DNA of 64,000 nucleotides from an uncultured Anaerolineae bacterium (lineage in GTDB: Bacteria; Chloroflexota; Anaerolineae; Fen-1058), in NCBI GenBank assembly GCA_964353405.1, contig CAYGWJ010000121.1:2421-66420 (forward strand). The letters are read 5' to 3'. The notes beneath the pieces are model-generated. The model made no database searches, was not told the origin of the DNA, and worked only from the letters and a program-made list of their open reading frames with translations. A program made the position numbers and the translations under genes. Shown piece after piece: positions 3,309 through 27,260 of the stretch. Every line of letters begins with the position of its first letter. The first letter of the stretch is position 1.

Positions 3309-4028
3309 TTACTTTTGCGCCGGATGGCGCAGGCGCCCCTCGGCGGGCCCGGGCGGGACCAGCCGCTCGCTGGACTTTTCGCCAATCTCCGCAAAAGCGA
3401 CCTGAAGGTGCGGGAACACCAGCCACGCCGAGGCCCAGCCGAACGCCCCGCCCGTGATGGTGCGAAGCACCCAGGTGCTTTCACGCGGCACGCCGCCGGG
3501 GAACAGGCCCGGCACGATATAACTGACCAGCTGGCTACCGCCGTCCAGCGCCATCGGCAGGATGCCGATAAGGATATAGATCCAAAACGAAATAGGCCTG
3601 GCCCGTGAGCGAACCCATCCGAACGCCAGACCGCTCAGCAGCAATGTGCCATAGATCGCCAGGTCACGCTGGCATAGCGCCACTTTGTAGCCAACCTGCT
3701 CGTTGCCGTTGAACGGGCTGGGCCAGGGATAGAGCGGCAAGTTGTCCTGGCCCACTCGTTCTACCAGCTCCGGGAGCGAGTAGACCGCTTTGTCCCCGAA
3801 CAAAAAGTATGACCGCTGCGGCAGCTCGTGGCACAAGGCGCGATACGTTGAGTAAATGATTTGCGCCGCAAAGGGATGGCCCGCCTTTTCCAGCACCGGA
3901 GCCAGGAACGGCAGGCCGATATACACCGCCAGTGCGGCATTGATAACCGCCAACCAGTGCCTGGACAGCCACACCGAAAGACGATCCGCCGCCGCAGTCA
4001 CGCGGCTCGATCCGTTAATAGGCGGCAA
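3309..4028 (-). CDS. DUF2085 family membrane protein
   Basis: Multi-TM protein with a CHELPQRSYF motif, a variant of the CHQxPERSF motif of DUF2085. Confidence 0.55.
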   Translation of the reverse strand: MPPINGSSRVTAAADRLSVWLSRHWLAVINAALAVYIGLPFLAPVLEKAGHPFAAQIIYSTYRALCHELPQRSYFLFGDKAVYSLPELVERVGQDNLPLYPWPSPFNGNEQVGYKVALCQRDLAIYGTLLLSGLAFGWVRSRARPISFWIYILIGILPMALDGGSQLVSYIVPGLFPGGVPRESTWVLRTITGGAFGWASAWLVFPHLQVAFAEIGEKSSERLVPPGPAEGRLRHPAQK

Positions 4029-4254
4029 GTTGCTCTCCCAACGCGCGCCTCACATCGGCGCGCGTGATGGGCGCGCACAACACCTCGTGCCCATCCACCT
4101 CTATGACCGGGATGCGATAGCGATACTGCTCGAACAGCGCCGCATCAGCCGTGATGTCAGCCGATTGCCACGACACACCCACTTCCAAGAGCCAGCTCTC
4201 CGCCTCTTGGCACAGATGACAGCCCGGCCTGGTGTAAAGTACAATGTGCCTCAC
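4015..4254 (-). CDS. Glutaredoxin-like small redox protein (CxxC thioredoxin fold)
   Basis: The sequence VRHIVLYTRPGCHLCQEAESWLLE...YRIPVIEVDG fits the glutaredoxin/NrdH-like fold. The likely GTG start at 4254 overlaps the ccdA stop (GTGA), suggesting translational coupling. The ORF-track ATG at 4326 lies inside ccdA. Confidence 0.55.
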   Translation of the reverse strand: MRHIVLYTRPGCHLCQEAESWLLEVGVSWQSADITADAALFEQYRYRIPVIEVDGHEVLCAPITRADVRRALGEQLAAY

Positions 4255-5096
4255 AGAGACGCAACCTGGTTGACCGCGCGGCCGCCAAGATAGCCTATGT
4301 ACGCCGGGACGAGCGGCAGGACGCACGGCGAGAGGAACGACAGCAATCCCGCCAGGAACGCGACGAAAAACGTCGGCGTGATGGACGCGCCGCCCGTGGA
4401 CACATCCAGGAACAAGCCTCGACTAAGCGCCCACCGGCTAAAGGCCTGCAGCGAAGGCGCCCATGACGGAATCGTCAGTGTCCAGTTTGCGCCGAACCAT
4501 TCGCCCACTTGCGGCACGACGCGGGGCAGCGCATCCACGAGGAGCAACAGGCCGACGATGATCAGCAGCACCGCTGTGATCGTTTTGACCATGGGCATGT
4601 AGCGGCGCATCCGGCGCAGGAGCGCCGTCGCGCGATCCACTGCCAGACCTGTCAGTAGAAAGGGGATGCCCAGGCCAAGCGAATAGCCAACGAGCAGGAA
4701 CACTCCCCGCCCCACCGTCTGCTCGTTCAGCCCTAGCGTCAAGATCGCGCCGAGCGTCGGGCCAACGCAAGGCGTCCATCCGGCGGAAAAGAACACGCCC
4801 ATCAAGAACGATGAGACATAGCCCAGGTCGCGTCCGCTCGTACCTTGATAGCGCGTGTCATATTCCAGGAACGGGAGGTTGAGCACGCCCGCCGTCGCCA
4901 ATCCAAAGATCACAACGACGACGCCGCCGAGGAGGGCAAGCCAACTGCGCAAGTCGTACAACAGTTGACCGACCGCCGTCACCGCCGCACCCAGTGCGAC
5001 AAACACCGCCGAAAAGCCCAGCACGAACGCGACGGCGTGAGTGAAAGTGGCAAAGCGGGCCGTTGCCGGCGTTCGCGCTTGACCCGAGACCGTCAT
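4251..5096 (-). CDS. ccdA: Cytochrome c biogenesis thiol-disulfide transporter CcdA (DsbD transmembrane-domain family)
   Basis: 281 aa polytopic membrane protein containing ...FSAGWTPCVGPTLGAIL..., typical of CcdA. Confidence 0.8.
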   Translation of the reverse strand: MTVSGQARTPATARFATFTHAVAFVLGFSAVFVALGAAVTAVGQLLYDLRSWLALLGGVVVVIFGLATAGVLNLPFLEYDTRYQGTSGRDLGYVSSFLMGVFFSAGWTPCVGPTLGAILTLGLNEQTVGRGVFLLVGYSLGLGIPFLLTGLAVDRATALLRRMRRYMPMVKTITAVLLIIVGLLLLVDALPRVVPQVGEWFGANWTLTIPSWAPSLQAFSRWALSRGLFLDVSTGGASITPTFFVAFLAGLLSFLSPCVLPLVPAYIGYLGGRAVNQVASL

Positions 5097-5260
5097 CTCT
5101 CGTTATCCTTCTTGACCAGCGACTCGAGCGCCTCCAAGTCCTTCTCCAGGTTGCGCTGGCGCTGGCTCATGGTGAGAATGTAAAGGAACGTGCCTATCCA
5201 GAACACGCCGTAAGCGACCACCAAAAAGATGGCGTTCTTAAAGCCCATCAAGTCTGACAT
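5093..5260 (-). CDS. ccmD: Haem exporter protein CcmD (small single-TM protein)
   Basis: The sequence MSDLMGFKNAIFLVVAYGVFWIGTFLYIL... is a short single-TM protein positioned directly after ccmC. An AGGAGG Shine-Dalgarno lies upstream of the ATG at 5260. Confidence 0.7.
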   Translation of the reverse strand: MSDLMGFKNAIFLVVAYGVFWIGTFLYILTMSQRQRNLEKDLEALESLVKKDNER

Positions 5261-5326: not shown

Positions 5327-6082
5327 CTATGCGACAAGTTCTTGCTGCAACCGCGCGACACGATCCGCCGTGTGTTCCAGTCGGATGCGCTGGCGCAGCA
5401 ACGTGATATAGACGACGGTGAACGCGATGACGCAAAACGTGAGCGTCATGCCCATCTTGGCCGAGCCAAGCCCGGTCTCGAACTGCATCTTGCCCTGTGC
5501 CGCGCTGCTGGCGGCTAACAGCGCCGGGTGAATCGTCCGCAGGAAAAAGACTGAGGCAAACGTCAGTGGGACGGTGACAAAGCTGACGATGCCATACACG
5601 GCCGAAAAACGCGCGCGCCGCTGCGGGTCGTCCATCGCGCCGCGCAACATGAGATAGGCCAGGTACACCAACCAGGTGATCGCCACCGTCGTCAGCCGCG
5701 CATCCCACGTCCACCAGGTGTTCCACACGGGCCGCGCCCATAGGCTGCCTGTCATCGCGCCCATCGTCAGGAACAGCGCACCCAATTCCACGGACGACAT
5801 GCCCACAATGTCCCACTTGCGGTCATTCGTCCGCAGGTACATCACCGAAGCGACCAGCGTGACAAAGAACGCCAAAAAGCCCACCCAGTCCACCGCCACG
5901 TGGAAGTAGAAAATGCGCTGGACTTCTTTCATCGTCAGTTCGGTCGGCGCCCACAGGAACACCAACACGAGCGACGTGACCACCAGCACGGCGCTGGCAA
6001 CGGCCAGTACGGTTCCGGTTGTATCCTTTGCCTGTTTCATGCTCCTCCTTCCTTCGACGTCACTCCTCCACGACGTACTCAA
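5327..6082 (-). CDS. ccmC: Haem exporter protein CcmC
   Basis: Carries the tryptophan-rich WWD motif (VWNTWWTWDARLTT), has 6 TM helices, and lies adjacent to ccmB and ccmA. Confidence 0.85.
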   Translation of the reverse strand: MSTSWRSDVEGRRSMKQAKDTTGTVLAVASAVLVVTSLVLVFLWAPTELTMKEVQRIFYFHVAVDWVGFLAFFVTLVASVMYLRTNDRKWDIVGMSSVELGALFLTMGAMTGSLWARPVWNTWWTWDARLTTVAITWLVYLAYLMLRGAMDDPQRRARFSAVYGIVSFVTVPLTFASVFFLRTIHPALLAASSAAQGKMQFETGLGSAKMGMTLTFCVIAFTVVYITLLRQRIRLEHTADRVARLQQELVA

Positions 6083-6734
6083 ACACCATGAACGACACTG
6101 CCACGAGAATCACGTCAAACACGATCAGCAAATTGAGCCACTGCTGCCACTCGGACACCGGCAGGCCCATCATCGCGCCGGACGTGGCCTTGACGGCGGC
6201 AATCAGTTCCGGCATCGCCACCGGGAACAGCAAAATGGGCAGCATCACCTCCCGAGCGCGCGTGTTGACCGCCATCGAGCTGAGCAGCGTGCCCACACCC
6301 GCAAAACCGAGCGTCCCCAGCACGACGACGAGGATCACCCAAGGCTGAACGAGCGGCACATTGAAAAACACTACAAACAGTGGCAGGACGATCACTTCGA
6401 CGATGAGCATGAACAACGCATTGCCCAACGCCTTGCCGAAAAAGATGGCGCTGCGATCCACCGGCGTCAATAGTAAACCATCCAGGCAGCCCTTGTCCAA
6501 CTCGACCGACAGCGAGCGATTCAGACCCAGCATTCCGGCAAAGACGATCGTCACCCATAGCGCGCCCGGCGTGGCTGTCTCGATAATGTTGCGCTCCGTC
6601 AGCTCCAACGCAAAGTTGAAAACGATGATGACCAGAATGCTGAACACGCCCATCGAGCTGAGCATCTCGCGCGTGCGGAGTTCAGCCGCGATGTCTTTGG
6701 CAATGATGGCGGCGACTTGTCTCAGATACGTCAT
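6060..6734 (-). CDS. ccmB: Haem exporter protein CcmB
   Basis: 224 aa, 6-TM ABC permease-like protein lying between ccmA and ccmC. Confidence 0.8.
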   Translation of the reverse strand: MTYLRQVAAIIAKDIAAELRTREMLSSMGVFSILVIIVFNFALELTERNIIETATPGALWVTIVFAGMLGLNRSLSVELDKGCLDGLLLTPVDRSAIFFGKALGNALFMLIVEVIVLPLFVVFFNVPLVQPWVILVVVLGTLGFAGVGTLLSSMAVNTRAREVMLPILLFPVAMPELIAAVKATSGAMMGLPVSEWQQWLNLLIVFDVILVAVSFMVFEYVVEE

Positions 6735-7426
6735 AGAGTGTGCTGACGATACGCTTGCAGAAACGCCGCGGTGTTCAACTCGCTTCGATTGGCCTCAAAC
6801 ACCACCCGGCCCTTGGCCAGAATCACCACGCGGTCGGCCACGGCCAGGCCACGCTCCAGGTCGTGCGTCGTCATGACGACGGTGCGCCCTTCGGTGCCGA
6901 CGCTGGACATGACCGCTTCCAGCCGTGCGGCGGCATCCTGGTCGAGACCCGTATACGGCTCGTCGAGCAGCATCAGTGACGGACGATGGAGCACAGCCCG
7001 TGCGATGGCGAGCCGTTGCTGCATTCCGCGCGATAAAGTCCGCACCGGGTCGCGGCGGCGCTGCGCCAGCCCGACCATCTCCAGCACCTCCGTGATGCGA
7101 GCGTCGAGGCCGGCCACGTCATACATGCGTCCATAAAAGCGCAAGTTCTCTTCGGCGGAAAGGTCGCCATACAGCAGCGTCTGATGGCTGACCAGGCCGA
7201 TGCTCCGGCGCGCATCCGCCGCGCCCTTGGGCAGCTCGTGCCCGGCGATCTTGACGTGACCCAATGTCGGGCGCGAGAGCGTCGCCAGGATGCGCAACAA
7301 CGTCGTCTTGCCCGCGCCGTTCGGACCGACGAGCGTGACGAACTGCCCCTCCGGCACGGACAGGTTCACACCGCGCAGCGCCGTGGTCGGTCCAAAGGAT
7401 TTGACGAGACTATTGACTTTTATCAC
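6731..7426 (-). CDS. ccmA: Cytochrome c biogenesis ABC transporter ATP-binding protein CcmA
   Basis: Walker A motif GPNGAGKTTLLRIL, ABC signature LSRGMQQRLAIA, and Walker B motif LMLLDEP. Confidence 0.85.
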   Translation of the reverse strand: MIKVNSLVKSFGPTTALRGVNLSVPEGQFVTLVGPNGAGKTTLLRILATLSRPTLGHVKIAGHELPKGAADARRSIGLVSHQTLLYGDLSAEENLRFYGRMYDVAGLDARITEVLEMVGLAQRRRDPVRTLSRGMQQRLAIARAVLHRPSLMLLDEPYTGLDQDAAARLEAVMSSVGTEGRTVVMTTHDLERGLAVADRVVILAKGRVVFEANRSELNTAAFLQAYRQHTL

Positions 7427-7489: not shown

Positions 7490-9433
7490 TCATTCGGTCA
7501 TCAACTCTTGCAGTTCCGCCTTGAGTGTGGCACGCTGCTGGCGGTATTCCTTGTCCTGGATGCGGCCCGCTTCAAAGTCATCATCCAATTGGGCAATGGC
7601 GTCCAGCAATTCATCTTGTTCTGCTTCCACATCTTGTACTTCTTCTTCGACCCCTTCCGCTTGCCGACGTTGCCTCAACCAGACAAAGGCGACAATCGCC
7701 ACAGCCACCAGCAACAAAGCCGCGGCAACGATGAGAATAGGCGAAGCTGTCTGGCTGGTAGGGGCCGTCGTGCCAGACGCAGAAGCGCTCGGCGCGCCAC
7801 TGAGTTGAAGCGCAAGGCTCGCTCCGGCAGCCAGGTCGCTGCCGACAAAATTGACCATGTTGCCGCCCTGTGTGGGGCGCGTGCCTGACTCGGTCAACTG
7901 CGGGCTGGTCAGCTTGGCGCCACCTTCGGGCACCAAGACGTTGATACTTTTCACCGGATACGCCATGGGCACTTGCAGGTCAAGCTTTTTGGCATCGTAA
8001 GGCAAATCATACGAAACGAGAACCTGCGTCGTGCCGGCGCCGGGCGCAACCGCTTCCGTGTCCGCAAAGCCGTTATCCAGCGACTTGTAGCGTCCACCTA
8101 GTTCGCCATCCATAAAGCGGAGGCCTGTCGCGCCGGCAGGCAGTTGGAAGCGCGCTGAAAGCCCATCCGAGCCGATGTAGGCGCGGTCGCCTGTGTTGGA
8201 CACGACGTACACCACTCCAACGGTCGTGCTGCCCGGCGACACAAAATCAAAGAACATGTGCATCTGTGCGATGCTGATAGTGGCGGCATCCGCCGTCGTC
8301 TCGTAAACCGTGATCGGCGCCGTCAGCGTCAGGCCGCCGTGAGCAAACGACAGCGCCTCACTCGTATAGATCGCCTTCAGGTATTCAGCCTGGAGGCCAT
8401 ACATGATCGGCGTCGAGGCGTCGAGCTTGTCGAACACAAACTGGCCCTTTGCGTCTGCGGCAAGCGTACGCGTGAACATGAGGCTTGAGCCATCGGGCGA
8501 AAGCGCGTACAACGTCACCGGCAAATTGCCTGGCGGCTTGCCGCCCGGCGTGCCATTCACAAACGAACCCATGATAGTCGCTTCGCCTTTGGGCGCGGCG
8601 ATCTTGACCAAGTCCATCGAAAGCGAACGAACGTAATCGGCGGCAGCCTGCCGATCGGCCTGACTCACACCGGCCAAGCCCGGCATCGCACCCTTACCAT
8701 TCGCGATGGCGCGATGTACGGCATCGACGGCATCGAGATCAGACTGCGATTTGCTTACCATCTTGCTCGCATCCGAGATATCCGGCGTGGCCGTGTTGTC
8801 GGACTTGCCCGTCGCGCCGTGGCATGAGGCACATTTGTCCGTGTAAACGGCTTTGCCCCGGTCCAGTTGATCTTGCGGAATGGACAGCGTGTAGAGATAC
8901 GCCACCACATCCCAACGATCCTCCGCCGTGAGACTGGTGAAAGGCGGCATTCCCCTTTGGAGCCGGCCGTTCGAAATCACATTGAACCAATCGGTCGGTT
9001 TGACCGTGCGCACAAAAGCCACATCGGCCAGGTCTGGAAACTTGCCTCCCATGTTTGCGACGATCTGCTGGCTCTGAGGGCCATCGCCCTTGCCCGCTGC
9101 GCCGTGGCAGGCCAGGCAACGCGCTTCATATACGCCCTGCCCTCTTTGCGCGGCAGGCTGCCGTTGAGGGAGTGCCACCGGCACAGGTGCGCCGGCTGTC
9201 GGGATATCCACAGGCGGCAGCGTGCCCACGGGCTGTGCAGCGGCAGAGGTCGGTTGTGCTGCCCGCGTCGCGGCCGCGCCCGGCGGCGGAACGATCGGCG
9301 TGACGGGGCCTTGAGGCAACTCGCCGGCGGTGTTGCAGGACGAGAGAACAAAGAGCGCCACAAGAGCGAATACAACCAGGGTCAAACGCAGATTTTTCAA
9401 CGAGTTGCCTCCACGGTCAACGCTGCGCCGCAC
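7490..9433 (-). CDS. Membrane-anchored dihaem cytochrome c lipoprotein
   Basis: Built from two class-I cytochrome c domains, a ~350-aa beta-rich domain, one TM helix and a cytoplasmic coiled tail. The N-terminus has a lipobox (LSSC). Two CXXCH motifs (CLACHG, CASCHG) are each followed by a Met-containing GMPPF or GAMPGL segment. A TM helix (ILIVAAALLLVAVAIVAFVWL) precedes a tail reading LDDDFEAGRIQDKEYRQQRATL. Confidence 0.7.
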   Translation of the reverse strand: MRRSVDRGGNSLKNLRLTLVVFALVALFVLSSCNTAGELPQGPVTPIVPPPGAAATRAAQPTSAAAQPVGTLPPVDIPTAGAPVPVALPQRQPAAQRGQGVYEARCLACHGAAGKGDGPQSQQIVANMGGKFPDLADVAFVRTVKPTDWFNVISNGRLQRGMPPFTSLTAEDRWDVVAYLYTLSIPQDQLDRGKAVYTDKCASCHGATGKSDNTATPDISDASKMVSKSQSDLDAVDAVHRAIANGKGAMPGLAGVSQADRQAAADYVRSLSMDLVKIAAPKGEATIMGSFVNGTPGGKPPGNLPVTLYALSPDGSSLMFTRTLAADAKGQFVFDKLDASTPIMYGLQAEYLKAIYTSEALSFAHGGLTLTAPITVYETTADAATISIAQMHMFFDFVSPGSTTVGVVYVVSNTGDRAYIGSDGLSARFQLPAGATGLRFMDGELGGRYKSLDNGFADTEAVAPGAGTTQVLVSYDLPYDAKKLDLQVPMAYPVKSINVLVPEGGAKLTSPQLTESGTRPTQGGNMVNFVGSDLAAGASLALQLSGAPSASASGTTAPTSQTASPILIVAAALLLVAVAIVAFVWLRQRRQAEGVEEEVQDVEAEQDELLDAIAQLDDDFEAGRIQDKEYRQQRATLKAELQELMTE

Positions 9434-9933
9434 CTGGCGCAGAATCGGTCAGATGGGTCAATGGGCCGACCACACTTGGGACATTGTGGATTACGGAACG
9501 CGGATTGCGGCGCACCGCTGGCCGATTGACGACGAGCGCGAACAGCGACTTCGATGTCGTCTTCTTTCGGCGCGGACGGCGCAGTCTTGGCCTTGCGCCT
9601 TGCCTGCACGGCCGCTTCGATTTCATCTGCGACCGCCGCTGGCGTTTTGCGGTCATCGCCCAGCGCATCCAACTCTTTCAGAATCTCGACACCGCGCGCC
9701 GCGTACTTTTCCCGCGTCGCACGATAATCCACTTCACGCAGCTTGCCGGTCTGAAAATCAAAGTCCAGGTCACGCAGCGCAGTGAGCACCGTATTGCGTT
9801 CAGCCTGCAGTTTCTCTCGCAAAGATTCTTCCGACACGGCGATCACGCGCGACCTGGCAGTGAACGGCGCGGCGACATAGACCGCCACAATCACCACCAT
9901 CGTCAAACCAATCAATGCTACGACGATTTCCAT
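9397..9933 (-). CDS. Membrane protein with an N-terminal TM, a CcmH-like juxtamembrane motif and a C-terminal zinc ribbon
   Basis: TM helix MEIVVALIGLTMVVIVAVYVAA, then the tail DLDFDFQTGKLREVDYRATREKY, and a zinc ribbon CPKCGRPIDPSDRFCARCG at the C-terminus. It is embedded in the ccm operon. Confidence 0.5.
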   Translation of the reverse strand: MEIVVALIGLTMVVIVAVYVAAPFTARSRVIAVSEESLREKLQAERNTVLTALRDLDFDFQTGKLREVDYRATREKYAARGVEILKELDALGDDRKTPAAVADEIEAAVQARRKAKTAPSAPKEDDIEVAVRARRQSASGAPQSAFRNPQCPKCGRPIDPSDRFCARCGAALTVEATR

Positions 9934-9940
9934 AGAGCCT

Positions 9941-10510
9941 CTACTTTGCCAGCGCCTTGTCCAGTTCGGCCACCAGTTCGGCTTCGCTCATCGGCGCGAT
10001 CTTGAACAATACAATGTTGCCCTGGCGATCCACCAAAAAAGATTCCGGCACGCCCTGGATGTGATACTTGGGCGAAATCTTGGTGCCCAAGTCAGGGCCA
10101 TTCAGGTACGTTACGCCAAACTTTTTGAGATAGTCGAGTGCTGCCGGTTCGGTGTCCACATAGTCAATACCCAGGAACACAACGCCCTTGTCGCGATATT
10201 GCCGCCAGACCTTTTCCAGTGCGGGCTGTTCTTCAGCACACGGCACGCACCAACTGGCCCAAAAGTTGATAAACACCACCTTGCCGCGCAAGACAGACAA
10301 CTTGACCTCCGGCTGGCCCGAACCGCCATCGTAGCCAGGATACACCTTGAGCGTAAAATCGGGCGCGATGCCGGACTTGGGCTGCGAGGCATTCCGCGCG
10401 CGCAGTTGGAGTGCCAGCACAATCACCAGGCCGACGACGCCCAACAACGCAACGGCGCGCCAGATCGAGCTGACTGTCTTTCTAGATGTAATCACGGCTG
10501 TTCCACTCAT
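9941..10510 (-). CDS. ccmG: Thiol:disulfide interchange protein CcmG/ResA/TlpA family (thioredoxin-like)
   Basis: WASWCVPCAEE active site, an N-terminal membrane anchor, and the TlpA-like fold sequence. Confidence 0.8.
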   Translation of the reverse strand: MSGTAVITSRKTVSSIWRAVALLGVVGLVIVLALQLRARNASQPKSGIAPDFTLKVYPGYDGGSGQPEVKLSVLRGKVVFINFWASWCVPCAEEQPALEKVWRQYRDKGVVFLGIDYVDTEPAALDYLKKFGVTYLNGPDLGTKISPKYHIQGVPESFLVDRQGNIVLFKIAPMSEAELVAELDKALAK

Positions 10511-11092: not shown

Positions 11093-13216
11093 TTATGCCT
11101 GTGCGGCTTTTAACGCTCTGCGCTCCACACTCAACGCTTTGCGCTCTTCGGCGGCATCCGGCCATGCGGCTACCAGCGTGCCCAGGATAAACACCAGCCC
11201 ACCCAGCCACAGCCAGTTGACCAACGGATTGATGAACACCTTGAACGTCGCCAGCGAACCGTCACTTTCCCAACCGCCCAACAGAACGTACAGGTCTTCT
11301 TTCATCGAGCTGAGCAGCGCGGGCGGCGTCATCCGCTCTCCGTTTGTGTATTGCTCCTGGTAGGGACGCATCGTCGTCAGGAGCTTGCCATTCTGCGAAA
11401 CCTCCACGCGCGCCGAGACAATGATCTTGTCCGCCTGGCCCGAAGGCACCAACTCTAACTGCCGAAACGTGATCTGGTACCCGCCGATGGACAGCGACCG
11501 GCCGACGGACAGCGCCTGTTGCGTCTCTTGCTGATACAGATGCGTCCCAAGGATGCCCACACCCATCAGTACGATGCCGGCATGCACCAGGTAACCTCCA
11601 TAGCGCCGCCGATTGCGCCCGATGAGATTCCACAGCGCAACCGGCCAGCTTTCACCCGTGGACTTGTGCCGCGCGCGCACGCCGCGCGCGTACTCTGCCA
11701 CGATGATCACGCCCGCATAGATCACCAGCGCAAAGCCCAACAAAGCCGCCCAGTTGTGAATGCCCAGCACATAGATGATGACCACGGCCACCAGCGTGGC
11801 CGGGCCGGGGAGGTAAAGCGCGCTCTTGCCCAGCGCCTGAGGCGAAGCCGCTCGCCACGAAATGAGCGGCGCAATCCCCATCAGCAGCACAAGCGGAACG
11901 AGCAATGGACCCACCACGCTCTGATAGTACGGCGCGCCCACCGTGATCTTGTTGTCGGTGAACAACTCGGAGAAAATCGGAAAGTACGTGCCGATGGCAA
12001 CCGCCAGATTGACGATGAGGAACAAGGCATTCTGCGCGATAAAGGCCGCCTCGCGCGAAAGCAGACTATCGAGCTTGTTCTCGCTCTTGAGATCGTCCAG
12101 CCGAGCCAGCAGCAAACCGATCGAGCCGACCAGCATCACGCCCGTGAAGGCGAGGAACGGCACGCCGATGGACGAGCGGGCGAACGAGTGCACCGACGAG
12201 ATGACACCCGTGCGGGTGATGAACGTGCCGAGGATAACCTGCGCGAAGGTGAGAATGATGAGGAACATGTTCCACGTCTTGAACATCCCGCGCTTTTCCT
12301 GGATCATCACCGAATGCAAAAACGCCGTGCCGGAAATCCACGGCATGAGCGCGGCATTTTCGACCGCGTCCCAGCCCCAATAGCCGCCCCAGCCCAACAC
12401 GTCATACGCCCAACGCATTCCCAGCAAAAGACCGATGCCGAGAAACAACCAGGCCATCAATGTCCAGCGGCGCGTGGTGCGAATCCAGGCATCATTCGTC
12501 TTGCCGGTGATGAGCGCCGCCATTGCAAACGAATACGGGATCGTGAATCCGACAAATCCGAGGTACAGGAAGGGCGGGTGCGCGATCATGCCAGGATGAC
12601 GCAAGAGTGGAGCAAGTCCTTGTCCATCCAGAGGCGTATACGGCAGTGAGCCAAGCGGCGCGAACAAAGTCTGTGCGATACCCGAAAAGCCGATGCTGCT
12701 CAAAGTGCTGAACAAGCCGCTGGCGCCCAAGACGGCGCCGACAATGTCGCCCGTTGGCGTTTGCCACAACTTGGCAAAGGGATTCGCAAACAACACGACC
12801 AACGCGATAAAGAACGCTTGCGTGATTTCGGCGACGGCGATGACGTAAGCCATCAGGTCGCGGTTCTTGTCCCACTTGCGCGCCATCACACCCGCGACGA
12901 ACATTGACATCAACCACGACCAGAACAACAGCGATCCATTTTGTCCGCCCCATAAAGCCGTGATCTTTAATATCGCGGGCGTAGAAATACTGGTCACATG
13001 CGCGGTGTACTCGAGGCGGAAATTATTGGTGAGATTAGAGTAGATGATCAACAGTGCGGACAGCGTCAACAATGGAGTGATCACCAGCACTGCGTTGCGT
13101 GCGCTCTTGACCCAATCTTCCCGATGGCTCCGCGCGCCGTGTATCGCCGCCGCGATGGCGTAAACGCTTGCCACCAAAGCCAACAAGAGCGAAATCAATC
13201 CAATGTCGGTTATCAT
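11093..13216 (-). CDS. ccmF: Cytochrome c haem lyase subunit CcmF
   Basis: 707 aa polytopic protein with the WWD motif WGGYWGWDAVENAALMPW and conserved His residues. Confidence 0.9.
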   Translation of the reverse strand: MITDIGLISLLLALVASVYAIAAAIHGARSHREDWVKSARNAVLVITPLLTLSALLIIYSNLTNNFRLEYTAHVTSISTPAILKITALWGGQNGSLLFWSWLMSMFVAGVMARKWDKNRDLMAYVIAVAEITQAFFIALVVLFANPFAKLWQTPTGDIVGAVLGASGLFSTLSSIGFSGIAQTLFAPLGSLPYTPLDGQGLAPLLRHPGMIAHPPFLYLGFVGFTIPYSFAMAALITGKTNDAWIRTTRRWTLMAWLFLGIGLLLGMRWAYDVLGWGGYWGWDAVENAALMPWISGTAFLHSVMIQEKRGMFKTWNMFLIILTFAQVILGTFITRTGVISSVHSFARSSIGVPFLAFTGVMLVGSIGLLLARLDDLKSENKLDSLLSREAAFIAQNALFLIVNLAVAIGTYFPIFSELFTDNKITVGAPYYQSVVGPLLVPLVLLMGIAPLISWRAASPQALGKSALYLPGPATLVAVVIIYVLGIHNWAALLGFALVIYAGVIIVAEYARGVRARHKSTGESWPVALWNLIGRNRRRYGGYLVHAGIVLMGVGILGTHLYQQETQQALSVGRSLSIGGYQITFRQLELVPSGQADKIIVSARVEVSQNGKLLTTMRPYQEQYTNGERMTPPALLSSMKEDLYVLLGGWESDGSLATFKVFINPLVNWLWLGGLVFILGTLVAAWPDAAEERKALSVERRALKAAQA

Positions 13217-13298: not shown

Positions 13299-13733
13299 TT
13301 ATTTGCTGGCCGGTGTCGGAGTGGGGAGTTGGTCTTCGTAACGAGTAGGACACTTGAGCAGCAAGTTGCTGGCGACAAAGGTCCCATCAGAGTTGAGCTT
13401 GCCCTCGGCAATCGCCTGGGCCTCGTGCTGCAACAGGTCCGGCTTGGGGCCGGTGTAGAGAATCTTGAGCGAGTCCACCTTGACCGTTGAGTTCAGCTCT
13501 TCGTGAGTGTCCACGATATTGAAGGACAGTCTGGAAGCCTGCGGGTTGTAGGCAATCGTGTCGCCCATCACAAAGCCGGATACGCGCAAGCTGCGGCCCG
13601 TCATGGCCTGCCCCTTGTCGCGTACCTCTTTGACTGTGAGGTAATACTGGGCCGAGCTGGAAATACTTGACACAATCAAATAGACTACCGCGGCTGCCAC
13701 CACAATTCCACCGATCCAAAACTTGGCGCGCAT
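13299..13733 (-). CDS. ccmE: Cytochrome c haem chaperone CcmE, Cys variant (CxxxY instead of HxxxY)
   Basis: The likely start is MRAKFW at 13733, preceded by an AGGAGG Shine-Dalgarno. The protein has a single N-terminal TM and an OB-fold sequence. The haem-binding motif reads LLLKCPTRYEDQ. Confidence 0.8.
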   Translation of the reverse strand: MRAKFWIGGIVVAAAVVYLIVSSISSSAQYYLTVKEVRDKGQAMTGRSLRVSGFVMGDTIAYNPQASRLSFNIVDTHEELNSTVKVDSLKILYTGPKPDLLQHEAQAIAEGKLNSDGTFVASNLLLKCPTRYEDQLPTPTPASK

Positions 13734-19649: not shown

Positions 19650-21731
19650 ATGTCAGATGATCCCAAGTCAAACGTTCCACATTCATCCTCTGAGGCCACC
19701 CCAGTCGCCGGCGCGGTGACAAACAAGCCTCGCTCTTTTGGGTCGAGGTTCTGGTCCAGGGTCAGCACCAACAAATGGCTGATGACCGGCACGATCGTCG
19801 TCACGCTGCTGATCCTGTTTGGGCTTTTCTTGGGCGGGATAGCTGTTTTTGACTGGAGTGAATCCACGGCGTTTTGTTCACTCTGTCACGTGATGAAGCC
19901 CGAGTACACGGCGTATCAAAGCTCGCCGCACTCTCGCGTGGAGTGCGGCACCTGCCACGTCGGCCCAGGCCCCACTGCCGCCGTCAAGGCCAAACTGGCC
20001 AACGTCCGATACCTGTGGGTGGCTCCCACCGGCTGGCATGAAAGGCCCATCCCTTCTCCCATCACCAGCCTACGCCCGGTCGAAGTGGTTTGCGAACAAT
20101 GCCACTGGCCGGAAAAGTTTTATCAGGATCGCCTGGCGACCGTCCCGCACTATGCAGAGGATGAGAACAACCGCCTGACGCAAATCAAGTTGCTCCTCAA
20201 GACTGGCGGCGGAACGCAAAACGCTGGCCAGGGACGCGGCATCCACTGGCACATCGCCAATCCCGTTTACTATATCGCGACCGACAAGCAGCGGCAGGAG
20301 ATAGACTGGGTTCAGGCTACTTTTGGCGGCAAGACAACCGAGTACCTCGCGACAGACAGCAAGCTGACGCCGGAGCAAATCGCCAAAGCCGAAAAGCGCA
20401 AGATGGACTGCGTTGACTGCCACAACCGCGCGACGCACGTCTTCCAGCGGCCAGGCGAGGCGCTCGACGCCGCCCTGGCAGCGGGCACCATCCCTGCCAA
20501 CTTGCCCTTCATCAAGCGCGAAGGGACCCAAGTACTGGAAAAGACCTACACGACCGAAGACCAAGCCGCCCAAGCGATCGCCGCTGTGGAAGACTTTTAT
20601 CGGACACAGTACCCCATGGTCTATAACAACCGCAAGGCGGATGTCCAGAAAGCCGTCGCCGGATTGCAGGCCATTTTTGACAGCACCCAGTTCCCCTTTA
20701 TGCGAGTGACCTGGGAGTCGCATCCGACGAACATCGGCCACAAGGATTTTGCAGGCTGCTTCCGCTGCCACGATGGCAAGCACCTGAGCCGAGACAACCA
20801 GGCCATCCGGCTCGAGTGCAATATCTGCCACAGCATCCCGCAGGTCATCACCCCGGACAAGACCACTGCGGCGCTGCCTCTGACCATCGGCATCGAACCG
20901 GATTCGCACAGAAGCACGACCTGGCTTGCGGAGCATCGTACCCGTTTCGATGCCACCTGCGCCAATTGCCACACAACCGGCAATGCCGGGGGCAATGACA
21001 ACAGTAGTTTTTGCAGCAATAGCGCCTGTCATGGCGCGAACTGGAAATTTGTCGGGCTGAACGCGCCCGGGGTGCGCCAACCGGGTCAACCTGCTCAACC
21101 TGCCCAACCGGCTCAGGGCAAGCCGCCTGCGATTCCGCATGATTTGGCCGGGCGCGACAACTGCCTGACGTGCCACAATCCTGATGGCGGCATCAAGCCC
21201 GCGCCCAAGGATCATGCCGGGCGCACGATTGACACATGCCAGGCATGTCACAAACCGACGACGGCTGCCCGTCCAACCGCAGCACCGACGGCGGCCGCCC
21301 CGACCACTGCGCCTTCAGAGGCGCCGACCAAGACAGCGGCCACGGCAACACCCGCCGCGCCGGCTGGAGGCGGCGCGCCGCCTGCCATTCCGCATGATTT
21401 GGCCGGGCGCGACAACTGCCTGACGTGTCACAATCCCGAGGGCGGCCTCAAGCCCGCACCGAAGGATCACGCCGGGCGCGCGAACGACACGTGCCTGGCG
21501 TGCCACAAGCCGTCAACGACCGCGCCTGCAGCTGCACCCACCAAGGCGGTAACTGCCACACCGGCTGCACCGTCAGGCGGCGAAGCGCCGCCGGCCATTC
21601 CGCATGACCTGGCCGGGCGCGACAACTGCCTGACGTGTCACAATCCCGAGGGCGGCCTCAAGCCCGCGCCCAAGGATCACGCCGGGCGTACGAACGATGC
21701 TTGCCAGGCCTGCCACAAGCAAAAGTCGTGA
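19650..21731 (+). CDS. NapC/NirT-family membrane multihaem cytochrome ending in three paired-CXXCH repeats
   Basis: N-terminal TM, then CSLCHVM, CGTCHVG, CEQCHW and CVDCHN, which match the NapC/NirT/NrfH quinol dehydrogenase fold. Further on are CFRCH, CNICH, CANCH and the variant CSNSACH. The protein ends in a three-fold repeat of PAIPHDLAGRDNCLTCHNPEGGLKPAPKDHAGRTNDxCxACHK separated by Ala/Pro/Thr linkers, about 14 haems in total. Confidence 0.8.
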   Translation: MSDDPKSNVPHSSSEATPVAGAVTNKPRSFGSRFWSRVSTNKWLMTGTIVVTLLILFGLFLGGIAVFDWSESTAFCSLCHVMKPEYTAYQSSPHSRVECGTCHVGPGPTAAVKAKLANVRYLWVAPTGWHERPIPSPITSLRPVEVVCEQCHWPEKFYQDRLATVPHYAEDENNRLTQIKLLLKTGGGTQNAGQGRGIHWHIANPVYYIATDKQRQEIDWVQATFGGKTTEYLATDSKLTPEQIAKAEKRKMDCVDCHNRATHVFQRPGEALDAALAAGTIPANLPFIKREGTQVLEKTYTTEDQAAQAIAAVEDFYRTQYPMVYNNRKADVQKAVAGLQAIFDSTQFPFMRVTWESHPTNIGHKDFAGCFRCHDGKHLSRDNQAIRLECNICHSIPQVITPDKTTAALPLTIGIEPDSHRSTTWLAEHRTRFDATCANCHTTGNAGGNDNSSFCSNSACHGANWKFVGLNAPGVRQPGQPAQPAQPAQGKPPAIPHDLAGRDNCLTCHNPDGGIKPAPKDHAGRTIDTCQACHKPTTAARPTAAPTAAAPTTAPSEAPTKTAATATPAAPAGGGAPPAIPHDLAGRDNCLTCHNPEGGLKPAPKDHAGRANDTCLACHKPSTTAPAAAPTKAVTATPAAPSGGEAPPAIPHDLAGRDNCLTCHNPEGGLKPAPKDHAGRTNDACQACHKQKS
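21118..21731 (+). repeat. Three near-identical tandem DNA repeats (~240 bp unit) encoding paired-CXXCH dihaem modules
   Basis: The run ccgcatgatttggccgggcgcgacaactgcctgacgtg(c/t)cacaatcc... occurs three times, starting at ~21136, ~21379 and ~21598. The repeats generate spurious alternate-frame ORFs. Confidence 0.85.
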
Positions 21732-21745
21732 TCGAACCGCCTTGC

Positions 21746-21763
21746 AACAGCGAATTCGTTGTT
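21746..21763. promoter_or_regulatory. 18-bp palindromic element AACAGCGAATTCGTTGTT, copy 1, upstream of the sensor kinase
   Basis: Imperfect palindrome with an internal GAATTC. It is the reverse complement of copies 2 and 3. Confidence 0.5.
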
Positions 21764-21781
21764 CTGGACGAATTGAATCGA

Positions 21782-23743
21782 ATGAGCACTACCGCCCTGG
21801 GATACATCTACTTTTTCTACGGCCTCGCGTTTTTTGCGATGGGGCTGGCGGTGGTGCTGGAAGCGGGCCGGACCAGCGAGTTGCGGTTCGCGCACTCGAT
21901 GCCGTGGCTGGCGGCCTTTGGCCTGACCCATGGCTTGCACGAGTGGTTTGAAATGTTTGAGGTGATGGGGCAATTGCCCCCTGGCCTGCCGCTGGGAGCA
22001 ATTCACCTCATCCTCCTGGTTGTCTCGTTTGCCTGCCTGGCAGCGTTCGGAATCAGCCTGGGCCGGACCGAGAGCGCGGCGCCGTTGGGCGCCATGTGGC
22101 GAACGCTGGCGCTCATCGGGTTCAGCCTGGGCGGCATGATCGTGTTGCGGCTCTGGCTGCCGCAGTCCGATTGGTGGGGAGCCGCCAGCGTCTGGGCGCG
22201 TTACAGCCTGGGGATCGTCGGCGCCATCGTTACCAGTTGGTCGCTCATTTCTCAAGGGCAAGTCTTTGCCAGGCTGGGCATGGCGCATTTTGGGCGCGAC
22301 CTGATCTGGGCAGCGCTGGCCTTTGCCCTGTATGGCATCGTCGGCCAGATGTTTGTGTCCAAGAGCGCGCTGCCGCCTTCGAACTTTATCAACTCTGATT
22401 TGTTCCTGCGGCTGTTCGGTGCGCCTGTTCAGTTGTTCCGAGGCGCGATCGCGATGGTGCTGGCCGTCACCATCATCCGCGCGCTGCGCGTGTTCGAGAT
22501 CGAACGCACACAGCGACTGCGCGCAGCGGAGCTGACGGCCCAGGAAGCTGAGCGGCGCGTCCAACAGGAAACGGCGCACCTGAACCGCCAATTGCAGGAA
22601 GCGGTCAACGAGCTATCCATCCTGTTTGAAATGTCGCGCATCCTGGCGGCCACGCTGGACTGGCAGGCTGTGCTTCAACAAGCCGTCGTCAAGGTCGTTG
22701 ACCTGCTGCCCGCTCGCGCGGCGATGATCCTGCTGGAAACGGATCCGCCGGGAAGCTGCGCCGCGAGCACAGGCTTTTGCCGCGCAGAGTTGGCTGGCGC
22801 CGCCCAGAGCATAGGTCGGGCCGTCATCACCGCCAACGCCGATAACAACGAATTCGCTGTTCCGCCCGAGATGCGCGTGCTGGCTCCGATGATGGCCGTG
22901 CCTTTGCACCTTTCGGGCAAGCGCGGTCTCATCGGCAGCCTGGTCATTTGCGTGAGCGACGTGCACATCTTTGAACCCAAGCGGTCGCTATTGCTCACGC
23001 TGGGCCGTGAGCTGGCCATCGCCATCGAAAACGCCCGGCTTTACCAGCAAGTCCAAGAGCGCGAGATGGTGCGCGGCGAACTGCTGCGGCGTTCGGTGCA
23101 GGTTCAGGAAGAAGAGCGCAAGCGCATCGCCCGCGAGCTGCACGACGGCATCGGCCAGATCTTTACCGCGCTGGCGCTGGGGCTTTCGGGTGTAGAAGAA
23201 ACCATGCCGCGTGACCCGGCGCTGGCGCGCAAGCAAATCGGCAATCTCAAAGACTTGGCCGTTCGCGCCATCTCTGAGCTGCGTCAACTGGTGGCCGATC
23301 TGCGGCCCGCGCAGTTGGACGACCTGGGCCTGGCGCCCGCGCTCCACTGGCTGACCGACGAGTGGCGCGACCGGCTTCACATGGATGTGCGCGTTCAAAT
23401 TCTAGGCCAGCGCCGTCGCCTGTCGTCGGAAATGGAAACCGTGCTGTTTCGCATCACGCAAGAAGCGTTGACCAACGTCGCCAAGCACGCCAACGCGCAG
23501 CGCACCGCCGTCAAGCTGGCTTTTGGCGATGACCAGGTCGAGCTGGTCATCGAGGATAATGGCATCGGCATGACGCCGGAACAAATGTACCGCCGCCAGG
23601 TTCGCCATCAAGGCTGGGGACTGGCTGGCATCCAGGAACGCGCCGCTCTCGTCGGCGGCACATTCGATATTGACTCGGCGCCGGGGCGAGGCACCCGGTT
23701 GACCGTCCACATCCCACTTGGTGGCGAGGAGGCCGTTGCATGA
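21782..23743 (+). CDS. Polytopic sensor histidine kinase with GAF, HisKA_3 and HATPase_c domains (NarX/LiaS-type)
   Basis: The ATG at 21782 (MSTTALGYIYFFYG) opens a ~7-TM N-terminal sensor domain. A GAF-like region and the HisKA_3 H-box (RIARELHDGIGQ) follow. G-box: DNGIGM...GWGLAGIQERAALVGG. The ORF-track start at 21635 is a repeat artefact. Confidence 0.85.
   Translation: MSTTALGYIYFFYGLAFFAMGLAVVLEAGRTSELRFAHSMPWLAAFGLTHGLHEWFEMFEVMGQLPPGLPLGAIHLILLVVSFACLAAFGISLGRTESAAPLGAMWRTLALIGFSLGGMIVLRLWLPQSDWWGAASVWARYSLGIVGAIVTSWSLISQGQVFARLGMAHFGRDLIWAALAFALYGIVGQMFVSKSALPPSNFINSDLFLRLFGAPVQLFRGAIAMVLAVTIIRALRVFEIERTQRLRAAELTAQEAERRVQQETAHLNRQLQEAVNELSILFEMSRILAATLDWQAVLQQAVVKVVDLLPARAAMILLETDPPGSCAASTGFCRAELAGAAQSIGRAVITANADNNEFAVPPEMRVLAPMMAVPLHLSGKRGLIGSLVICVSDVHIFEPKRSLLLTLGRELAIAIENARLYQQVQEREMVRGELLRRSVQVQEEERKRIARELHDGIGQIFTALALGLSGVEETMPRDPALARKQIGNLKDLAVRAISELRQLVADLRPAQLDDLGLAPALHWLTDEWRDRLHMDVRVQILGQRRRLSSEMETVLFRITQEALTNVAKHANAQRTAVKLAFGDDQVELVIEDNGIGMTPEQMYRRQVRHQGWGLAGIQERAALVGGTFDIDSAPGRGTRLTVHIPLGGEEAVA
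22844..22861. promoter_or_regulatory. 18-bp element AACAACGAATTCGCTGTT, copy 2, inside the kinase coding sequence
   Basis: Exact match to copy 3. It encodes NNEFAV in the GAF region. Confidence 0.35.
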
Positions 23744-24411
23744 CGATCAAGATTGTGCTCGTGGACGATCACGAGATCGTGCGGGCGGGCCTGAGGATGC
23801 TGCTCAGCTCGCACTCGGACATTGAGATCATCGGCGAGGCTGAAAACGGCCAGCAGGCCTTGCAGCTCTGCCAAAAGAACCCGCCCGATGTCGTCATTAT
23901 GGACATCACCATGCCGGGCCTCAGTGGGCTTGAAGTCACGCGCCAGATCAAGCAGCAATGCCCCAACACGGCCGTGCTGGCGCTCACCATCCACGAAGGC
24001 GAGCAATACTTTTTCGAGATGCTCAACGCGGGCGCTTCCGGTTACGTCCCTAAACGCGCCGCGCCCACCGACCTGGTGAATGCCATCCACGCTGTGTATT
24101 CCGGCGAAGTGTACCTGCATCCAAGCGTCGCCAAGGCGCTCGTCAACGATTACATCCAACGTGTTCAGATGGGCTGGGAGCGCGCCAGCTACGACGGACT
24201 GACCGACCGCGAGCAGCAGGTCCTCAAGATGATTGCCGAAGGCATGATGAACAAAGAGATCGCCGAAAAGCTCTCGATCAGCGTGCGGACGGTGGAGCGG
24301 CATCGAGAGAACATTATGGCCAAGCTCAACCTGCACACGCGGGCCGAGCTGGTGCGCTATGCGGTAGACAAGGGACTGATTGACATCAGCAACAAGCCGC
24401 CTTCAGAGTAG
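23740..24411 (+). CDS. NarL/FixJ-family response regulator (REC plus LuxR-type HTH)
   Basis: REC domain sequence IVLVDDHEIVRAGLRMLL...VVIMDITMPGLSG...LALTIHEGEQ. LuxR HTH LTDREQQVLKMIAEGMMNKEIAEKLSISVRTVERHRENIMAKL. The gene overlaps the kinase stop. Confidence 0.9.
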   Translation: MTIKIVLVDDHEIVRAGLRMLLSSHSDIEIIGEAENGQQALQLCQKNPPDVVIMDITMPGLSGLEVTRQIKQQCPNTAVLALTIHEGEQYFFEMLNAGASGYVPKRAAPTDLVNAIHAVYSGEVYLHPSVAKALVNDYIQRVQMGWERASYDGLTDREQQVLKMIAEGMMNKEIAEKLSISVRTVERHRENIMAKLNLHTRAELVRYAVDKGLIDISNKPPSE

Positions 24412-25404: not shown

Positions 25405-25566
25405 AGCGCTGGCGACCAGGCAAAAATGCATCGTCCTGCTCGCACTCCCTCATTGCGCATGGGTTTCCCCCCCCCACACACCCCCTCATTCATTGACGGT
25501 TGCCCCACTTGAATCGTGCGTGACTACCCTCTAGGGTGATCAGAATATTGGGGATATGGGCGCAAC

Positions 25567-25597
25567 AAGTTGGGTGGCCTGCCCAATTGACCTGTCA
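25567..25597 (+). promoter_or_regulatory. 31-bp promoter-like element, copy 2, upstream of the octahaem cytochrome operon
   Basis: AAGTTGGG-N5-TGCCCAATTGACCTGTCA. It is 26/31 identical to copy 1, with identical spacing. Confidence 0.45.
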
Positions 25598-25663
25598 TGG
25601 GGCAATGTGATACCTTTGTGTCAGCAGAACCAGGTGAATGGCCTACACACAAAGGAGAAGAAA

Positions 25664-26446
25664 ATGTCCACTACACGCGTTGTCTTTGCCGTCTTTCTCA
25701 TGACCGTTGTGACGGCGTTCGTGGTGAGTGTGTGCGCGGCAGGAGTGGCGTATGCCGCTGGCCCTGAGCCACAGCAACAACCAGACTGCGCCACTTGCCA
25801 CTCGGAAGTCGCCAAGACGTGGGGAGGGGGCAAACATGCTATCAAAGGTATTGCCTGCACGGCATGTCACCAGCCCGGCCCCAATGCCCACCCTGGCAGC
25901 CCGATAGGTGTTGACAAGTCGGCCGCGTTTTGCAGCACTTGCCATTCCGCCGCGGGCACAGAGTGGCAAACGAGCGGTCATGGCAAGGCCAACGTCGCGT
26001 GCACTTCGTGCCACGACATGCACTCAGCCTCGCTCAAGTTCAAGGCGCCGACTGACCTGTGCGCAAGCTGCCACAAGGAGCGCGAAGACCAAAGCAACAT
26101 GCCGATGGACAGCTCGACCAACGCGTGCATCAACTGCCATATGCACAGCACGGCTTCCGGCACAACCGCCACCAACCCCACTCCCTCCAACCACTCTTTC
26201 GTCATGGGAGCGGACGCCTGCCAGCGCTGCCACAAGGATAATGTCCACACAGCGCATCAAATCATTTCTACGGTTTTGCCCCAGCCTGGCGCCGACAAGC
26301 CCGTCCAACAACTTGTGCCCACCGCAACGCTTGCCGCCGCGAGTGCCGCATCGAACGGCGTCTCGGCCTGGCCCAACATCATGGGCGGCGTGATCGGAGG
26401 GCTTTTGCTTGGCTTTATTTCGGCTGTCGTCGTGGTAAGGAGATAG
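25664..26446 (+). CDS. Octahaem c-type cytochrome with a C-terminal TM anchor (NrfB/QrcA-like electron-transfer subunit)
   Basis: AAGGAG Shine-Dalgarno before the ATG at 25664. Signal peptide. CXXCH motifs: CATCH, CTACH, CSTCH, CTSCH, CASCH, CINCH and CQRCH. C-terminal TM helix IMGGVIGGLLLGFISAVVVV. Confidence 0.8.
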   Translation: MSTTRVVFAVFLMTVVTAFVVSVCAAGVAYAAGPEPQQQPDCATCHSEVAKTWGGGKHAIKGIACTACHQPGPNAHPGSPIGVDKSAAFCSTCHSAAGTEWQTSGHGKANVACTSCHDMHSASLKFKAPTDLCASCHKEREDQSNMPMDSSTNACINCHMHSTASGTTATNPTPSNHSFVMGADACQRCHKDNVHTAHQIISTVLPQPGADKPVQQLVPTATLAAASAASNGVSAWPNIMGGVIGGLLLGFISAVVVVRR

Positions 26447-26448
26447 GA

Positions 26449-27240: not shown

Positions 27241-27260
27241 GACATTCGACGCCAAAGGAT

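Follow-up and report, generated by a model that had tools for sequence, protein, structure and literature searches.

The ccmE gene opens a minus-strand cluster of ccm genes in the window, by which we mean the whole 64-kb stretch of DNA that was analysed. Read from ccmE, the gene order is ccmE-F-H-G, two genes for CcmI-like proteins, ccmA-B-C-D(-like), and ccdA. A group of multihaem cytochrome genes runs divergently on the plus strand. The features are as follows.

13299..13733, minus strand: ccmE, ATG at 13733 and stop codon at 13299-13301; 144 aa; Cys-type membrane-anchored haem chaperone
13338..13352, minus strand: codons for Cys128-Pro-Thr-Arg-Tyr132, the CxxxY haem-binding motif, equivalent to E. 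coli His130..Tyr134
11093..13216, minus strand: ccmF, 707 aa
10507..10980, minus strand: ccmH, 157 aa with four Cys; PF03918, E 1.2e-24
9941..10510, minus strand: ccmG/ResA-like thioredoxin-fold thiol:disulfide oxidoreductase with WCVPC; redoxin/DsbE families
9397..9933, minus strand: accessory gene 1, 178 aa, TM helix, CcmI-N-like helix, and zinc ribbon
7490..9433, minus strand: accessory gene 2, 647 aa, two CXXCH class-I cytochrome c domains
6731..7426, minus strand: ccmA, ABC ATPase; TIGR01189, 149 bits against a cut-off of 131.6
6060..6734, minus strand: ccmB; Pfam PF03379, E 3.6e-32
5327..6040, minus strand: ccmC, with His47, WWD motif WWTWDARL at 109-116, and His171
5093..5260, minus strand: CcmD-like ORF, 55 aa, single TM helix, strong ribosome-binding site aggagg
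4251..5096, minus strand: ccdA/DsbD-type transmembrane thiol reductant carrier; Pfam PF02683
14242..21731, plus strand: divergent multihaem cluster encoding proteins of 764 aa (10 CXXCH) and 383 aa (9 CXXCH), a 523-aa fusion of cytochrome b with 2 CXXCH, and a NapC/NirT-like protein of 693 aa (13 CXXCH)

The limits of ccmE were set by comparison with its homologues. An alternative, longer ORF with a TTG start would encode 168 aa; because the homologous CcmEs measure 143-145 aa and share the MRAKF start, we took 13299..13733 as the true coding sequence. The C-terminal sequence of its translation is ASNLLLKCPTRYEDQLPTPTPASK, and the Cys128 codon reads TGT on the minus strand (aca on the plus strand at 13350-13352). 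The protein matched the Pfam CcmE family (PF03100) with an E-value of 5.4e-24 and a score of 84.9 bits, above the 24.6-bit cut-off. None of the NCBIfam CcmE equivalog models reached its cut-off (77 bits against 126 for the best), indicating that the window CcmE is distant from the characterised proteobacterial CcmEs.

When the PDB sequences were searched using phmmer, only CcmE chains were matched. The query ...LLLKCPTRY132 was aligned to ...VLAKHDENY134 of E. coli CcmE (8CE8_E and 1SR3); Shewanella CcmE (1J6Q) and D. vulgaris CcmE (...LMTKCPLEH, 2KCT) also aligned at the motif, the latter as a weak match (E 0.006) to a truncated PDB chain. The pairwise HMMER alignments put Cys128 opposite E. 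coli His130 and Tyr132 opposite Tyr134, and in the alignments to the E. coli, Shewanella, and D. vulgaris CcmEs no histidine of the window protein occupied the His130 column. Canonical System I is recognised by HxxxY in CcmE, which the window protein does not contain. The nearest histidine, His103 in 'LLQHEAQ', was considered as a substitute for His130 and rejected; it falls in the column of E. coli Glu105 and varies in the family. The first-pass annotation had claimed a cysteine in the haem-binding position and had proposed an alignment with the E. coli and Desulfovibrio CcmEs as the check. That alignment upholds the claim: the cysteine lies inside the haem-binding position, with no His at His130.

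An AlphaFold model of CcmE, built with 24 homologues (mean pLDDT 72.7), predicts an N-terminal TM helix at residues 3-25, followed by an OB barrel with its final strand at residues 119-127. Cys128 is the first residue of a low-confidence C-terminal tail, in which residues 130-144 have pLDDT values below 50. This is the usual CcmE topology, with the barrel extracytoplasmic. Foldseek returned E. coli CcmE in the CcmABCDE complex (8CE8_E) as the top fold match in the PDB; 1J6Q, 1SR3, and 2KCT also matched. No second CcmE was found within the 64-kb window.

Conservation of the cysteine goes far beyond chance. Every one of the 120 top homologues, which reach down to 47% identity, had it within the motif K-C-[PAS]-[TSA]-[RK]-Y, and L124-L126, K127, C128, P129, and Y132 were invariant in a 24-sequence alignment (A1). 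We also searched 1.84 billion representatives of 50%-identity clusters exhaustively with HMMER and inspected the best 150 hits, down to 34% identity. Cysteine filled the column in 142 of these 150 representatives; the remaining 8 were truncated, had an alignment gap at the column, or carried Gly or Ala, and a His at the Cys128 column occurred in none of the 150. The commonest motifs were KCPSKY (50 representatives), KCPSRY (19), and KCPTRY (16), with a few ending in Phe. The predominance of CPSKY agrees with the literature, in which CPSKY is the majority motif and the aromatic residue at +4 is Tyr, rarely Phe (PMC3601427).

One genome per GTDB species was then scanned for the patterns LLLKCPT[RK]Y or PDL[LM][QR][HN]EAQ, which matched at least 599 stretches; at least 580 species genomes with a pattern match encode a relative. 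The best 80 of these at least 580 relatives all come from Chloroflexota, mostly labelled Anaerolineae, Anaerolineales, or Thermoflexales, and include the cultured Thermanaerothrix daxensis and T. solaris. The nearest among the matches listed were an Anaerolineae MAG, 87% identical, and a Thermoflexales MAG, 81% identical, and the locus of the Thermoflexales MAG is colinear with the window, with 61-90% protein identity over the cluster. Judged from these comparisons of sequence, the cysteine is under strict purifying selection, and the Cys form is the norm and the universal state in Anaerolineae. Given this conservation, the Cys-type CcmE is a deep, coherent subfamily rather than a sporadic substitution.

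Pfam or NCBIfam matches cover CcmA, CcmB, CcmC, CcmE, CcmF, CcmG, CcmH, and CcdA. The CcmD assignment of the 55-aa ORF is weaker and draws on its position, its topology, and a weak match to Pfam CcmD_alt (PF20077, E 0.08); the ORF overlaps the start of ccdA by 4 bases, and a similar small TM ORF lies just 3' of ccmC in 43 of 53 related loci. In a tblastn survey of the cluster proteins against 80 genome loci, the order ccmE-F-H-G-X-Y-A-B-C was kept in 51 of the 52 loci whose downstream flank reached 9 kb or more, and 60 of the 61 loci with 4 kb or more of such flank had both CcmH and CcmG. The sole exception of the 61 is locus L002 (10523-11782), from MAG Anaerolineae PPR_0270, the closest GTDB genome among the matches listed. 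Here, ccmF breaks off after ~420 aa, the genes beyond it are unrelated and lie on the opposite strand, the sequence contains no runs of N, and the remainder of the operon is absent. This break is probably a rearrangement or a scaffold mis-join. The window cluster appears to be a complete System I set with intact catalytic motifs. The first-pass annotation had described the ccm operon as unusual; its gene order, however, is the conserved one of this entire lineage and is common also to a Bacillota plasmid operon.

Adjoining ccdA downstream, we noted genes for a glutaredoxin-like protein (PF05768, 4015-4326, minus strand), a DUF2085 membrane protein (3309-4028, minus strand), and a GBBH-like_N protein (PF06155, 2864-3190, minus strand). 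The glutaredoxin-like gene overlaps the end of ccdA and could be part of the operon's thiol-redox branch.

The first-pass annotation had suggested that CcmC and CcmF might show features that co-vary with the CxxxY motif, and no such features were seen. In an alignment to 7F02_C, His47, WWTWDARL, and His171 of the window CcmC correspond to His60, the WWD motif, and His184 of E. coli CcmC. Aligned with Thermus thermophilus CcmF (6ZMQ_A), the window CcmF shows the WWD motif WGGYWGWD at 276-283, and its His residues 213, 301, 343, and 545 each align with a His. Neither alignment revealed a deviation at the canonical ligand histidines or the WWD motif of either protein, and the literature searched yielded no report of CcmC or CcmF covariation with Cys-type CcmE.

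CcmH was the only partner protein found to differ. The window CcmH carries the motif C41-P-V-C44-x7-C52-x4-C57 after L-N, with Cys52 in the Ser column of 'DSN'. Canonical CcmH has a single L-R-C-x-x-C followed by D-S-N and no other Cys in the domain, a pattern from which the window CcmH departs; E. coli and Pseudomonas aeruginosa CcmH have the CXXC pair only. We recorded the CcmH cysteines in the window and across loci L003-L081, L084-L152, and L162. To see whether the pattern goes with the CcmE type, 80 metagenome loci around more distant CPSKY-type CcmEs were included, and annotated plasmid or chromid operons served as controls.

All 67 Anaerolineae CcmH proteins contained C-P-V-C-x7-C-x4-C. 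Among the 22 CPSKY loci with at least 3.2 kb downstream, a CcmH-like gene followed ccmF in 11 and was absent from the other 11; over all CPSKY metagenome loci we found 13 CcmH-like genes, each of which encodes C-x-C-G-C...C...C. In the controls, Rhizobium and Cupriavidus combined a CcmE of the form KHDE[TN]Y with a CcmH of the form LRCxVCQNQ..DSN, and the Sulfitobacter, Psychrobacter, and Deinococcus CcmHs had the CXXC pair and Ser only. A Metabacillus plasmid, with LLVKCPSKY in CcmE, carried a Cys in the CcmH Ser column. In one alignment, a Cys in the 'DSN' Ser column was found in every CcmH located beside a Cys-type CcmE, and Ser in 7 of 7 canonical CcmHs. The two cysteines co-occur in 81 operons (67 from Anaerolineae, 13 metagenome loci, and 1 Bacillota plasmid), against none of the 7 canonical CcmHs.

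At the level of sequence, the CcmH cysteine is a clean lineage signature. Since independent events are unlikely, a functional covariation between CcmE and CcmH is not demonstrated, and the co-occurrence may be nothing more than shared ancestry. We found no description of the CcmH signature in the literature, in a search that was poorly targeted on multi-Cys CcmH.

The two genes between ccmG and ccmA encode proteins with CcmI-like features. In the 178-aa protein, an N-terminal TM helix is accompanied by a CcmI-N-like helix (LRDLDFDFQTGKLREVDYR) and, at the C-terminus, by a zinc ribbon; the gene is kept between ccmG and the cytochrome fusion. The 647-aa protein (636 aa with the start chosen for its identical NCBI entry) begins with a lipoprotein-like leader and two CXXCH class-I cytochrome c domains, continues through a region of ~300 aa, and ends with a TM segment and a C-terminal CcmI-N-like helix. 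The ~300-aa domain had no Pfam match; some relatives show CarboxypepD_reg (PF13620). The C-terminus, comprising the TM segment and LDAIAQLDDDFEAGRIQDKEYR, matched the CcmI N-terminal domain model TIGR03142 below its cut-off (E 7e-5), and this match recurred in 14 of 37 members of the 647-aa family, with a best E-value of 6e-8. The TM-plus-helix unit is common to both proteins (BLASTP E 4e-7), and a TPR domain was not detected in either. The CcmI-like assignment draws on these below-cut-off TIGR03142 matches.

The 647-aa protein was present in 51 of 52 Anaerolineae loci. Some of its close relatives are shorter and lack the cytochrome domains, and the JGI name for one of these is CcmI. Among the homologues examined, only those from Chloroflexota had the two class-I cytochrome c domains fused on. 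In many of the CPSKY metagenome loci, comparable CcmI-like matches occupy the interval from ccmF or ccmH to ccmA. An E-F-(H)-X-Y-A-B-C-D architecture thus appears to be general for bacterial Cys-type systems.

The plus-strand region adjoining ccmE is rich in genes for respiratory cytochromes. The 523-aa fusion joins a cytochrome b561-like part to two Planctomycete-type cytochrome c domains. A module at 25556-28520 (plus strand) encodes a 7-haem cytochrome, a 4Fe-4S protein, and an NrfD-like protein, and a HisKA_3/LuxR two-component pair lies at 21635-24411, between the cytochrome gene groups. The adjoining multihaem cytochromes, with 7 to 13 haems each, are probable clients of the ccm system.

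A CcmE of the Cys type was already on record as a variant, as the first-pass annotation had stated (Allen 2006 and Goddard 2010, cited through PMC3601427 and PMC9084895). It had added that the variant is a minority form of archaea and Desulfovibrio-type systems. The variant does occur there, but Stevens et al. 2011 also listed Cys-CcmE in Chloroflexi and Firmicutes (PMC3601427), and in Anaerolineae it is the universal state. In D. desulfuricans and Methanosarcina acetivorans, Cys-CcmE binds haem covalently and is essential (PMC9084895). About one-third of the bacteria with Cys-CcmE keep CcmH (PMC3601427), and the 'no CcmH' criterion in the first definition of System I* (Allen 2006; D. desulfuricans operon) was dropped in 2011 (PMC3601427). 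The window CcmE is a further member of this Cys-type subfamily (System I*), although its operon departs from the original 'no CcmH' criterion.

We consider it likely, with good confidence, that the window ccmE is the first gene of a complete Chloroflexota (Anaerolineae) System I cluster and encodes a functional Cys-type CcmE. The apparatus around the Cys-CcmE is, by its predicted components, the full canonical one. By analogy with the studied systems, CcmC would present haem at its WWD site with His47 and His171 as ligands. The Cys128 thiol would add to a haem vinyl group to form a covalent thioether, as reported for the D. desulfuricans and M. acetivorans CcmEs, and Tyr132 would ligate the haem iron. 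CcmAB(D) would free holo-CcmE through ATP hydrolysis, after which CcmF and CcmH would take the haem and attach it to reduced CXXCH; the route of CXXCH reduction would run from CcdA to CcmG to CcmH.

A thioether in place of the His-N-C bond between CcmE and haem would have to be cleaved by chemistry other than that used in E. coli. The E. coli CcmE variant H130C binds haem and fails to pass it on, and the reverse substitutions C127H in D. desulfuricans and C120H in M. acetivorans CcmE fail (PMC9084895). The Cys and His forms are thus not interchangeable in any of the systems studied, which makes it plausible that the haem hand-off chemistry of the window system differs from that of the His type.

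Three other readings of the locus were weighed. Cys128 might bind haem only non-covalently, as an axial thiolate, making CcmE a simple carrier with no covalent intermediate. For D. vulgaris CcmE, which has the same KCP motif, non-covalent binding of ferric haem by Cys127 has been reported (Aramini 2012, summarised in PMC3884852), so that even within the Cys variant attachment may not always be covalent. The D. vulgaris protein, however, was a truncated soluble domain without CcmABCD, whereas covalent, haem-stained, Cys-dependent holo-CcmE has been seen in vivo in both D. desulfuricans and M. acetivorans (PMC9084895 and PMC3601427). The invariant Tyr at +4, moreover, already provides an axial ligand in the E. 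coli model. We regard a purely non-covalent carrier as unlikely.

There is very little chance, in our estimation, that the window encodes a streamlined System I* of the Desulfovibrio type, in which CcmF alone would receive haem from the CcmE cysteine, with CcmH and CcmG missing or playing no part. The D. desulfuricans System I* does function without CcmH or CcmG (PMC3601427), and half of the distant CPSKY metagenome loci (11 of 22) have no CcmH-like gene after ccmF. In the window and in 60 of 61 loci, however, ccmH and ccmG directly follow ccmF and the CXXC is conserved, and such conservation would be hard to explain if the two genes were dispensable. The first-pass annotation's link to a Desulfovibrio-type System I does not survive the gene content either, given that CcmH (CXXC), CcmG (WCVPC), a CcmD-like ORF, CcdA, and the CcmI-like proteins are all present. 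That the cysteine reflects a sequencing or assembly error, or that the gene is decaying and non-functional, is so improbable that it can be set aside. We found no support for it beyond the window coming from a metagenome-assembled contig. A change from His to Cys takes two base changes, the identical motif occurs across hundreds of independent assemblies, and the ORF is intact, of the usual family length, and inside an intact operon; recurrence of the motif in homologues, genomes, and cluster representatives effectively refutes the error or decay of this gene.

A functional Cys-type CcmE within a complete System I remains our preferred reading, and much of it was already known: the Cys type dates from 2006 in the literature, it was recorded in Chloroflexi and alongside CcmH in 2011, and the family is publicly annotated as CcmE. 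What novelty is left belongs to the CcmH cysteine signature and the pair of CcmI-like proteins, not to the CcmE motif. For the window, the reading means that its multihaem cytochromes would be matured by a complete Cys-type System I that is standard in Anaerolineae.

A bolder proposal, which we put forward tentatively and hold to be rather improbable, is that the CcmH-retaining Cys-CcmE systems are a separate branch of System I, one based on thiols. In such a branch, the His to Cys change in CcmE would go together with the Ser to Cys change in CcmH (4- or 5-Cys motifs) and with the CcmI-N-like membrane protein pair, and haem release from the CcmE thioether could involve the additional thiol of CcmH or the fused cytochrome. 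The CcmE-haem thioether is normally very stable, and its release step is chemically unexplained in the current model. If the CcmH cysteine and the CcmI-like pair were functionally tied to Cys-CcmE, they would offer a handle on how this bond is broken during transfer to the apocytochrome.

Among solved structures, E. coli CcmE (1SR3 and 8CE8) is the best match to the window protein in both fold and sequence, and the two systems share the membrane anchor, the Tyr at +4, the partner set, and the CcmC and CcmF histidines and WWD motifs. They differ in the replacement of His130 by Cys and in gene order (A-B-C-D-E-F-G-H in E. coli and E-F-H-G...A-B-C-D in the window). In contrast to E. coli, the window CcmH has four Cys, and the CcmI-like role would fall to two unusual proteins.

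The System I* of D. desulfuricans and D. vulgaris (2KCT) resembles the window in the OB fold, in the Cys within K-C-P-x-x-[YH], and in an operon that opens with ccmE-ccmF and not with ccmA. The Desulfovibrio operon lacks CcmH and CcmG (PMC3601427), whereas the window operon has both. The window motif is CPTRY rather than the majority CPSKY, and its similarity to D. vulgaris CcmE is low. M. acetivorans CcmE (Cys120, CXXXY) is of the Cys type, like the window protein; in M. acetivorans the cysteine is genetically required for haem binding and cannot be replaced by His. Archaeal systems lack CcmD, CcmH, and CcmI, and their CcmF is often split, whereas the window encodes a single 707-aa CcmF together with CcmH, CcmG, and CcmD-like and CcmI-like proteins.

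The Metabacillus plasmid used as a control, the 330-kb pB218 of Metabacillus sp. B2-18, carries a complete Cys-type ccm operon (NZ_CP088246.1, 183235-189757). Unlike the window, it resides in a Bacillota host, a relative of Bacillus, has ccmG at the end of the operon, and encodes a second accessory protein without the two cytochrome c domains or any haem motifs; its version of the 178-aa protein is shorter and lacks the zinc ribbon. The pB218 CcmH has lost the first Cys of CXXC and has kept the C-x8-C pair. What it shares with the window is an order in which ccmE-F-H precedes genes for two TM proteins, annotated as 'hypothetical' in pB218 and each with an L-x-x-L-E-x-D-Y-like helix, and then ccmA-B-C-D, with a TlpA-type reductase next in pB218; a Cys likewise occupies the Ser position of 'DSN' in CcmH.
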